Positions 31,276 through 31,632 of a DNA stretch of 64,000 bases are shown here, piece after piece. The notes below the pieces were generated by a model, which made no database searches, was not told where the DNA came from, and worked only from the letters and a program-made list of their open reading frames with translations. A program made the position numbers and the translations under genes. This DNA is from Escherichia phage JP4. The stretch lies in sequence record PQ330092; one strand, written 5' to 3'. The stretch's first letter is position 1, and each line of letters opens with the position of its first letter.

Positions 31276-31497
31276 ATGGCAAATATCACTACTCTTTCCC
31301 AACTGGAAGCACTGGTTAAATCTATGCGGGAACATGCCGACAAAATCGGCGTACAAGATCCAGCCGTTTGCTTCTGCGACGAATTGAATGATGATACCCT
31401 GGTAATAGCAGAAGTCCAGGACGTTTCTAACTATTCCTCGCGTTACACTGGCGGCGTAGCAAATAAAGGTGACTTCTGTTTATACCTTACAAAATAA
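31276..31497 (+). CDS. hypothetical early protein (73 aa)
   Basis: Track ATG 31246 lies in the hairpin; trimmed to MANITTLSQ after GAGGA. Confidence 0.75.
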   Translation: MANITTLSQLEALVKSMREHADKIGVQDPAVCFCDELNDDTLVIAEVQDVSNYSSRYTGGVANKGDFCLYLTK

Positions 31498-31597
31498 CAA
31501 CGCGGGGAGATAATAACTCCCCGTTACTTTTTCAGTACTGAATCATTTAATAGACGGATCTCGGCACCCGGTGGGTTAGTGACTGTTTCGTCTTGAT
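31490..31597 (-). ncRNA. candidate ~100-nt minus-strand sRNA of the box family
   Basis: Runs from promoter 31604-31632 to the hairpin at 31503-23; carries ACATCAAGACGAAACAGTCACTAACCCACCGGGTGC, related to 37573..37606. Confidence 0.45.
31503..31532. terminator. bidirectional intrinsic terminator
   Basis: CGGGGAG-ATAATAA-CTCCCCG with T-rich tracts on both strands. Confidence 0.6.
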
Positions 31598-31603
31598 GTA
31601 GTA

Positions 31604-31632
31604 ATTATGCCAGTACTGGATGCACTTGTCAA
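31604..31632 (-). promoter_or_regulatory. sigma70-type promoter (minus strand)
   Basis: Minus strand: TTGACA (31632-31627), 17-bp spacer, CATAAT (31609-31604). Confidence 0.6.

Follow-up and report, generated by a model that had tools for sequence, protein, structure and literature searches.

Two highly transcribed non-coding RNAs have been described in the terminal repeat of PA5oct, a Pseudomonas jumbo phage that is a distant relative of the RaK2 clade (PMC7318152). These RNAs, ncRNA001 and ncRNA002, are 236 and 451 nt in length, were defined by RNA sequencing (RNA-seq), and were reported to have no known promoter and to be similar only to sequences of a sister isolate (PMC7318152). In the Pectobacterium phage CBB, RpoD-like early promoters with UP elements have been reported together with a phage sigma factor and a T4-like replisome (PMC5259590). 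The element considered here lies at positions 31490–31632, on the minus strand, of a 64,000-nucleotide stretch of Escherichia phage JP4 (sequence record PQ330092; the whole stretch is referred to as the window). It is a self-contained, non-coding unit that runs from a promoter to a terminator, and it carries a module that is promoter-coupled, structured, conserved, multi-copy, confined to the terminal repeat and found in several RaK2-like genera. Like the module, the PA5oct RNAs are non-coding and lie in a long direct terminal repeat, theirs being that of a phage reliant on host RNA polymerase; unlike the module, they are long and known from RNA-seq, and the likeness drawn here is one of location and description. 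With that limit, the PA5oct pair is the closest precedent.

The source phage belongs to Asteriusvirus, the PBECO4/121Q/slurp01-like jumbo coliphages of ~350 kb; slurp01 is 98.1% identical over positions 31000–32100 of the window, and 38 phage records match that region. Positions 26792–43886 recur as an exact duplicate at +20114. The window thus holds the 20,114-bp terminal repeat twice in tandem (26792–46905 and 46906–64000, the copies being identical to the window end), so that each feature of 26792–43886 has a twin at +20114 and the unit as a whole has an exact second copy at 51604–51746 on the minus strand. The terminal repeat of fEgEco12 is 20,993 bp in length and has been verified by restriction digests (PMC13070987). 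The locus corresponds to positions 4701–4968 of the fEgEco12 genome, 4.7 kb inside the verified repeat, and this match places the left physical genome end at position 26792 of the window.

The promoter of the unit is of the sigma-70 type and agrees with the consensus at 11 of 12 positions; its sequence and place (TTGACA-17-CATAAT, 31604–31632, minus strand) are those given in a preliminary description of this DNA. The -35 hexamer occupies 31632–31627 and the -10 hexamer 31609–31604, and the 17-nt spacer between them (AGTGCATCCAGTACTGG) contains CAGTACTG and ends in TGG, which includes an extended -10 TG at 31612–31611. Upstream of the -35 box, an A/T-rich, UP-like stretch (31633–31660) is evident from the sequence itself; the unit shares it, in a back-to-back arrangement, with the plus-strand promoter of the next gene (TTGCTA-16-TATAAT, 31666–31693), and it is invariant or nearly so in 11 Asteriusvirus genomes. 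Transcription is predicted to start within 31597–31599, at A31597, the seventh base past the -10 box, inside a conserved NCAT word. The predicted RNA then contains a hairpin, H1 (31581–31592; GAC-GAAACA-GUC), with a 3-bp stem and a 6-nt A-rich loop, which is followed by the core 17-mer ACTAACCCACCGGGTGC (31564–31580). The core includes a second hairpin, H2 (ACCC-ACC-GGGU, 31576–31566), and leads through five variable bases (CGAGA, 31563–31559) to block 2 (TCCGTCTAT, 31558–31550; family consensus YSYRTCTRT), a spacing that is constant in all copies. An A/U-rich 3' stretch (31524–31549), again with CAGTACTG (AGTACT at 31539–31534), ends in an A-run before the terminator hairpin CGGGGAG-UUAUUAU-CUCCCCG (31523–31503), and the feature closes at 31490 with the tail CGUUGUUAUUUUG. 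The hairpin was flagged as terminator-like on both strands, in agreement with its earlier reading as a two-way terminator; it is common to the unit and the plus-strand gene 31246/31276..31497, and its plus-strand tail is TTACTTTTTCA. The predicted transcript, from A31597 to the end of the U-rich tail, has a length of ~100–105 nt, and the transcript sequence quoted earlier is correct.

No open reading frame (ORF) of at least 20 aa is present in 31498–31619 on either strand, which covers the interval between promoter and hairpin for which the absence of a frame had been reported; the sole frame is the 4-codon AUG-AUU-CAG-UAC-UGA. A conserved micro-ORF was considered for the family and rejected, as most copies hold frames of 1–4 codons, three hold longer ones (11, 21 and 33 codons), and the frames differ between copies. 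In Salmonella phage SD-6_S16 (L156, 547–711), a 54-aa 'hypothetical protein' with a TTG start is annotated over the module on the opposite strand; this frame is closed in the window and in most relatives, and it is therefore likely to be a false gene call.

Promoter-like sites are common in this A/T-rich part of the genome (21 in a 4-kb region, compared with 11.3 +/- 3.3 in shuffled sequence). The consensus match is consequently weak evidence by itself, and it is through family membership and conservation that the site rises above chance. A close paralogue of the promoter together with the first 45 transcribed bases lies at 37538–37610 on the plus strand, and a 17-mer of the shared part (ACTAACCCAYNGGGTGC) has 11 matches in the window with at most two mismatches where 0.03 are expected. 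The 5' part of the common architecture consists of a sigma-70-like promoter, four bases, NCAT, H1 with a 6–8-nt A-rich loop, and ACUAA or a variant of it. The 3' part consists of RCCC-AYN-GGGU followed by GC, exactly five variable bases, YSYRUCURU and an A/U-rich stretch that often contains CAGUACUG. The elements from the promoter to YSYRUCURU are all present in the flagged copy.

Copies of the module were collected from IMG/VR, metagenomes and GenBank phages, and a relaxed pattern gave 83 matches, of which 77 have a phage-like context and 66 are non-redundant. A covariance model, R1, was built from 14 copies and contains no promoter positions. In a search of the window with filters off, R1 recognizes exactly 10 copies per repeat unit and has no hit in 1–26791. 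The flagged copy (31550–31599, minus strand), which is one of the 14 seed members, scores 65.6 bits (E = 7e-15), and the non-seed copies score 29–49 bits. Its closest paralogue, with the same promoter and H1 type, lies at 37571–37620 on the plus strand (E = 4.7e-14). On the minus strand, a copy at 27867–27916 has an H1 of GUC/GAC and the core TCAAGCCCACCGGGTGC (E = 1.2e-11), and a copy at 28082–28131 has an H1 of CGC/GCG and a core variant with a 4-nt loop (E = 1e-10), driven by the promoter TTGACT-16-TATAAT at 28163–28136. A convergent pair spans 29954–30059 and is made up of a plus-strand copy at 29954–30000 (E = 1.8e-10; promoter at 29921–29949) and a minus-strand copy at 30018–30059 (E = 4.6e-5), the promoter of which, at 30093–30065, matches the consensus at 12 of 12 positions. 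R1 also recovers four further plus-strand copies, each behind a promoter embedded in a terminator: 35915–35962, which is codirectional with the genes and has its -35 box inside the upstream terminator hairpin (35878–35910), 39935–39977 (promoter at 39898–39930), 43204–43251 (43167–43199) and 45462–45504 (45425–45457). The unit had been presented as the only leftward-pointing feature of its gene block, a claim that fails given the minus-strand family members at 27867–27916, 28082–28131 and 30018–30059; window-wide, minus-strand sites matching the promoter consensus at 11 or more of 12 positions number ten, five per repeat unit. A clean switch in orientation along the repeat was likewise rejected as a general rule, as it holds in the window and fails in relatives.

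Confinement to the terminal repeat is also seen in the complete genome of EC22.5-2 (351,992 bp), in which all nine R1 copies lie within 30,830–49,626, an 18.8-kb segment of the terminal-repeat region, and in which the other 333 kb contain nothing else below E = 0.6. Other family-bearing contigs are related to the Salmonella phages 7t3 and Munch, the Klebsiella aerogenes phage fENko-Kae01 and the Pectobacterium phage CBB. The fENko-Kae01 match lies in the annotated terminal repeat and the CBB match in the annotated redundant repeat.

Coupling of the module to a promoter is strict. A promoter matching at least 8 of 12 consensus positions was found for 77 of the 77 distinct R1 hits, and 75 of these reach at least 9 of 12, a score attained by ~3% of random positions in the same loci. 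In 65 of the 77, the -10 box ends exactly 4 nt before the NCAT that starts the module. As a result of this constant coupling, the module always lies at the extreme 5' end of the predicted transcript. Three contexts follow it. In the stand-alone type (~17 of the 66 non-redundant copies, in several genera), to which the flagged unit belongs, a GC-rich hairpin is located 39–41 nt past the core (36 nt in one copy), and the copy opposes the neighboring genes and shares this hairpin with the convergent upstream gene. In the gene-codirectional type (~22 of 66), the -35 box lies in the terminator hairpin of the previous gene (GGGATTGACTCCGGTCAGTCCCTTTGCTATTAT), the copy lacks its own terminator and the next promoter follows. 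The copy at 35915–35962 has this form, and the codirectional copy at 37571–37620 is followed by a TTGATCAA cluster and a further promoter. The third context is the convergent pair, which accounts for ~16 of the 66 copies and has fixed spacings of 45, 56 or 63 nt. In two relatives (L009 2069+ and L027 12612+), the module runs directly into a ribosome-binding site and an ORF. The 178-aa protein that carries the module in its 5' untranslated region in two relatives was considered as a partner and set aside, as a Pfam search with it gave no match and the window encodes no homologue of it.

The strictly fixed distance to the promoter, and the many copies that lead longer transcripts or sit in the 5' untranslated regions of genes, speak for the main rival explanation of the family. 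According to this explanation, the module is a cis-acting, promoter-proximal signal that acts on the transcribing polymerase through pausing, loading, anti-termination (as with lambda nut, HK022 put, RfaH ops or lambda PR'-Q) or shut-off of early promoters, and the short RNA of the flagged copy would be a by-product or a titrating decoy. H1 has a short stem and an A-rich loop and precedes a conserved word that is single-stranded, a layout that recalls boxB/boxA, and the lambda nut and HK022 put elements are likewise short structured RNAs that lie just past early promoters and combine a hairpin with a conserved single-stranded word. The lambda PR'-6S-tR' arrangement, in which a constitutive promoter yields a short transcript that ends at a terminator, counts in the same direction, as the unit similarly joins a strong promoter to a short non-coding transcript and an intrinsic terminator. 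In lambda, however, a late operon lies past the terminator, while beyond the terminator of the flagged unit the minus strand holds only the antisense of plus-strand early genes, and neither a Q-like protein nor a binding element for one came to light. The same is true of the stand-alone copies generally, and convergent pairs make no sense for the control of read-through. In contrast to nut and put, the module lacks a boxA consensus (no CGCTCTTA-like word occurs in 31490–31600), its H1 is only loosely boxB-like, it lies at a fixed and very short distance from the start site, it is present in ten copies per 20 kb, and the flagged copy meets a terminator at once with no genes beyond. The module also has no Rfam match and is found on only 10 of the ~45 early promoters per repeat. 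Taken together, a signal in cis appears unlikely.

Evidence that the module is selected as RNA comes from H1. In an alignment of 92 model-guided hits (73 distinct), pair 1 of H1 is GC in 32, GU in 11, CG in 7, AU in 3 and UG in 1; pair 2 is GC in 24, AU in 17, CG in 8 and UA in 3; and pair 3 is CG in 35, GC in 10 and AU in 3. Two-sided changes are present in all three pairs, and pairing is kept in 97.5% of H1 cells. The covariation score of 0.293, obtained in an alignment fitted to R1 and thus favoring the structure, compares with 0.119 +/- 0.008 in shuffled alignments, none of 500 of which reach it, and with values of at most 0.035 in slid controls. A hairpin search carried out independently on each sequence found H1 in 56 of 66 copies, compared with 37.9 +/- 3.1 after shuffling, with more than 12 different stem sequences. 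Furthermore, read on the promoter-sense strand, H1 has 12 G-U pairs and the closing position of H2 has 29, and these would be A-C mismatches on the opposite strand. H1, which lies 2–5 nt from the predicted 5' end, can be compared with the 5' stabilizer hairpins of early mRNAs such as the ompA and T4 gene 32 leaders.

H2 behaves differently. Among the 73 distinct copies its three C-G pairs are near-constant, with one two-sided exception in one pair, and it is closed by A-U in 41 and by G-U in 29; its constancy in alignment A2 is partly due to the way those copies were selected. Covariation is consequently uninformative for H2, and a core that is essentially constant without compensatory change is what recognition by a protein would produce. 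One reading at the DNA level is that a phage or host protein binds the double-stranded form of CCCAYNGGGTGC and block 2, which would serve as an operator or roadblock just past selected early promoters; another is that the promoter and its A/T-rich downstream stretch constitute an R-loop replication origin like T4 oriF/oriG. The core contains a short inverted repeat (ACCC-N3-GGGT), copies are restricted to the terminal repeat, convergent pairs of relatives flank Fur-box-like palindromes, and RaK2-like phages have a T4-like replisome (PMC5259590). In an oriF/oriG-type origin, the transcript of a promoter stays hybridized to an unwinding element and primes replication; at the flagged unit, a promoter is followed by an A/T-rich stretch. 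However, the orientation of the core to the promoter never varies, the covariation of H1 and G-U pairs confined to the sense strand are not required of a double-stranded site, and ten origins per 20 kb would be unusual. A DNA-level site is therefore considered improbable.

A long-range helix between 5' AGACG and CGUCU of block 2, predicted in the flagged copy, is not kept across the family when the copies are compared by eye and was rejected.

Comparison across phages bears on whether the unit has outlived its surroundings. In the 11 Asteriusvirus genomes, every base of the promoter, the core and GATCCGTCTATTAAATGATTCAGTACT in the 3' stretch are invariant, and the terminator stem comes in two alleles that are unrelated to each other, CGGGGAG/CTCCCCG and GGGGATC/GATCCCC. 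In the genus Alcyoneusvirus, the same unit is found in the Klebsiella phages RaK2, Muenster and K64-1, also opposite to the genes, with ~69% identity over 194 nt. In these units, the promoter is TTGACA-17-TATAAT, the 17-mer is unchanged, AGTACTGAA is present and the hairpin is followed, in the direction of the unit, by a clean U-tract (the tail is CUUUUUCUUU in RaK2 and the interrupted CGUUGUUAUUUUG here). The proteins that flank the RaK2 and EJP2 copies have no similarity to those flanking the flagged copy, a Pfam search with the flanking proteins gave no match, and an IMG/VR search for relatives of the upstream protein returned 121Q alone. The retention of the unit beside unrelated genes indicates a self-contained module and argues against both a remnant and an antisense role specific to the neighbor.

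The remnant explanation holds that the unit is a decayed, inverted early gene cassette that has lost its ORF and its function. Its promoter, NCAT, 5' hairpin and ACTAA are indeed shared with coding cassettes, such as ACATAGGGGAGCGGTTCCCCTGGTAACTAAGGA at 31700–31732. Yet decay is hard to reconcile with ~69% identity to Klebsiella copies whose flanking genes have no detectable similarity, with invariance in 11 Asteriusvirus genomes despite the replaced terminator stem, or with ten copies per repeat that keep a conserved core, and a functionless remnant is the least probable of the explanations considered. The ordinary early cassettes (31700–31732, 32018–32050 and many others in 29–46 kb) consist of ACAT, a GGGGAG...CTCCCC hairpin, TGGTAACTAAGGA and a start codon. 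In their leaders, GGGGAG...CUCCCC hairpins are placed like H1 and are followed by the same ACUAA word, whereas the module has the near-constant hairpin and block 2 where the leaders have a ribosome-binding site and an ORF. Judged by sequence, the module looks like a derivative of a cassette leader in which these two parts have been replaced.

An antisense function was proposed in the preliminary description, in which the unit was a small RNA of the 'box' family partly antisense to the 3' untranslated region of the upstream gene. The first part of this proposal stands, as the unit is a conserved, non-coding promoter-to-terminator unit of ~100 nt that is related to the hairpins of the cassette leaders ('boxes') and is backed by cross-genus conservation, sense-strand covariation of H1 and strict promoter coupling. 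The antisense logic is not supported. A leftward RNA that pairs with read-through of gene 31276..31497 would be fully complementary to that plus-strand RNA, but trivially so, and the overlap with the gene is the shared terminator only. Alternatively, the divergent arrangement, with -35 boxes ~33 bp apart, might allow the promoter to boost or insulate the next one. Neither version explains the near-constant core, the covariation of H1, the codirectional copies or conservation beside unrelated genes. Sister copies that are gene-codirectional without a terminator, or that form convergent pairs, further speak against antisense control, as do the RaK2 and EJP2 units beside non-homologous genes, and a role of this kind is very unlikely. 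A type I toxin-antitoxin pair likewise finds no footing at this locus: the upstream product (73–83 aa) has no hydrophobic stretch, the overlap is the terminator only, and the unit is also conserved beside non-homologous genes.

In view of these results, the module is probably a real, selected RNA element. The explanation that we favor overall, with moderate confidence and from sequence analysis, is that the flagged unit produces an early, high-dosage, stand-alone small RNA that acts via the near-constant hairpin. In this mechanism, host RNA polymerase would transcribe the unit in the first minutes of infection to give an RNA product of ~100–105 nt (~31597 to ~31492). H1 would protect or organize the 5' end of the RNA, and the near-constant hairpin with the tail would form the working part, either as a sequence-specific ligand for a host or phage protein or as a short pairing seed. 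The ~20 strong promoters per virion genome would provide high dosage. The flagged copy would be the stand-alone small-RNA form, its sisters would deliver the module as leaders or convergent pairs, and the unit would not be an antisense regulator of its neighbor. That the module works in trans specifically, as a ligand or decoy, can be put forward only tentatively. A more elaborate form of this proposal, which we regard as speculative and rather doubtful, is an RNA-based device for host take-over or anti-defense, in which a flood of hairpins from ~20 early promoters in both repeats sequesters or redirects one protein. Possible partners would be an RNA-binding regulator, a nuclease, a defense sensor or RNA polymerase, and the stand-alone, leader and convergent arrangements would be three routes of delivery for one ligand.

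Several observations weigh against an early small RNA acting through the hairpin, in addition to the fitting of the covariation alignment to R1 and the constancy of H2 described above. The minus-strand tail of the terminator hairpin (CGTTGTTATTTTG) is U-rich and interrupted, and the U-tract is poor in EJP2 and in some metagenomic copies. Compared with shuffled sequences, the 108-nt RNA does not stand out in folding energy (z = -1.29 for the minus strand and -1.74 for the plus strand). About 22 copies reach the next promoter or gene and ~16 are paired, and the leader form fits a role in cis. A literature search found no transcriptome of these phage genera. A duplex search with the 31-nt core against plus-strand RNA of the window returned its own antisense and family copies, with the remainder falling within the range of shuffled sequences, and complementarity to the E. 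coli 16S, 23S, 5S, tmRNA, M1, 6S and 4.5S RNAs and three tRNAs is not above that of shuffled sequences. The duplex search also revealed the family copies near 27.9 and 28.1 kb. Positions 77–92 of the E. coli rnpB RNA (L164) contain CCAUAGGGCAGGGUGC, in which the adjacent 8-mers CCAUAGGG and CAGGGUGC correspond to both phage core variants; this is probably a coincidence.

Comparison with known families indicates that the module is, by its sequence, a new RNA family representing a known kind of element. No match was obtained for the whole window in Rfam 15 at gathering thresholds, and for 29850–31750 at E <= 10 there were three chance-level hits of 15–17 bits against thresholds of 40–47. A scan for tRNA and tmRNA returned none, and 5,426 complete E. 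coli genomes gave no match when searched by BLAST with the unit (E <= 10). When 185,579 bacterial and archaeal genomes were searched for the core with block 2, the matches were scattered, single and chance-like, and R1 recognizes none of the 80 loci tested. The 12-mer core, sought in either orientation in literature full text, was found only in unrelated primers. As for a solitary repeat mimic of the RNA anti-CRISPR kind, the enterobacterial I-E and I-F clustered regularly interspaced short palindromic repeats (CRISPR) are not known to resemble CCCAYNGGGUGC.

Among described small RNAs, the closest in general design are the Hfq-type RNAs and multi-copy families such as Qrr, Sib and OmrA/B, which similarly have a sigma-70 promoter, a length of ~100 nt, a conserved 5' part, an A/U-rich stretch, an intrinsic terminator and paralogues with a common core. 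As predicted from sequence, the flagged unit has its own promoter and the form of a stand-alone unit without an ORF, and its terminator has a hairpin with an interrupted tail (CGUUGUUAUUUUG in the window). In contrast to the Hfq-type RNAs, the module has a near-invariant hairpin as its conserved part, where those RNAs have a single-stranded seed, its U-tail in the E. coli phages is broken up by other bases, and many paralogues are leaders or convergent pairs rather than stand-alone genes.

RaK2-like jumbo phages are candidates for phage therapy directed at E. coli, Klebsiella, Salmonella and plant pathogens, and over 80% of their genes are without an assigned function. The present analysis provides an RNA family that can be searched with a model, has one covariation-supported helix, is linked to host-type promoters, lies in the first-expressed 20 kb and outlasts its neighbor genes. 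Intergenic regions of this kind are currently missed by annotators or mis-called as small ORFs. The near-constant core of ~30 nt is a concrete target for Northern blots, pull-downs and mutagenesis. Binding to a host factor would make the module a new case of RNA-based take-over, and action on RNA polymerase would make it a new signal controlling early transcription.

Other features of the repeat and its relatives were recorded in the course of this work. The terminator-promoter modules at 35878–35910, 39898–39930, 43167–43199 and 45425–45457, with similar ones at 1111–1140 and 2525–2554, place the -35 TTGACT in the 5' arm of the hairpin and the -10 box after the T-tract (GGGATTGACTCCGGTCAGTCCCTTTGCTATTAT). 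Downstream of the copy at 37571–37620, a cluster of TGATCA/TTGATCAA palindromes (37620–37665) contains TTGATCAA at 37627 and 37654 and two more GATC sites, and past it lies a DksA-like zinc-finger gene (37865–38122, so annotated in fEgEco12). The density of GATC in the repeat is ~3 times that of 1–26791. In relatives, Fur-box-like palindromes matching GATAATGATAATCATTATC at 15–16 of 19 positions lie in the middle of convergent pairs (L007 2822 and 8336–8365; L012 1286; L027 6091; L076 1315 and 5113; L090 4551), with none in the window, and they hint at an iron/Fur input or at titration of Fur.

The palindrome AGTACT has 349 copies in the window, where roughly 20 are expected, and 65 of the 105 copies in 1–26791 are coding. 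Almost all spacers of early promoters contain it, as does the 3' part of the module. The complete 352-kb genome OR845138.1 has 919 copies, 7.7 times the expectation, and CAGTAC and GTACTG are its two most over-represented hexamers. Chi sites (GCTGGTGG) are also enriched in the terminal repeat, with 8 on the plus strand per 20 kb (27381, 33212, 37252, 38715, 39983, 42331, 43737 and 45537) compared with ~0.1 expected, and further sites on the complementary strand at 27369 and 33150. In one complete genome, 9 of the 16 plus-strand sites lie in the repeat, and in relatives several Chi sites fall within promoter spacers belonging to module copies (RaK2, L007 4496 and L027 10025). These sites may protect linear DNA ends against RecBCD. 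A gene-free region at ~27530–27720, 0.7–0.9 kb from the left end of the repeat, has iteron-like short repeats, with GACGGCTAAA at 27603, 27651 and 27691, five copies of ACGGCTA and three of CTGGATGG, and might serve as an origin or in packaging or recognition of the DNA end. Outside the terminal repeat but close to it, the minus strand of 7382–21652 contains ~12 consecutive ORFs of similar size, roughly 245–460 aa, most of them 385–412 aa.

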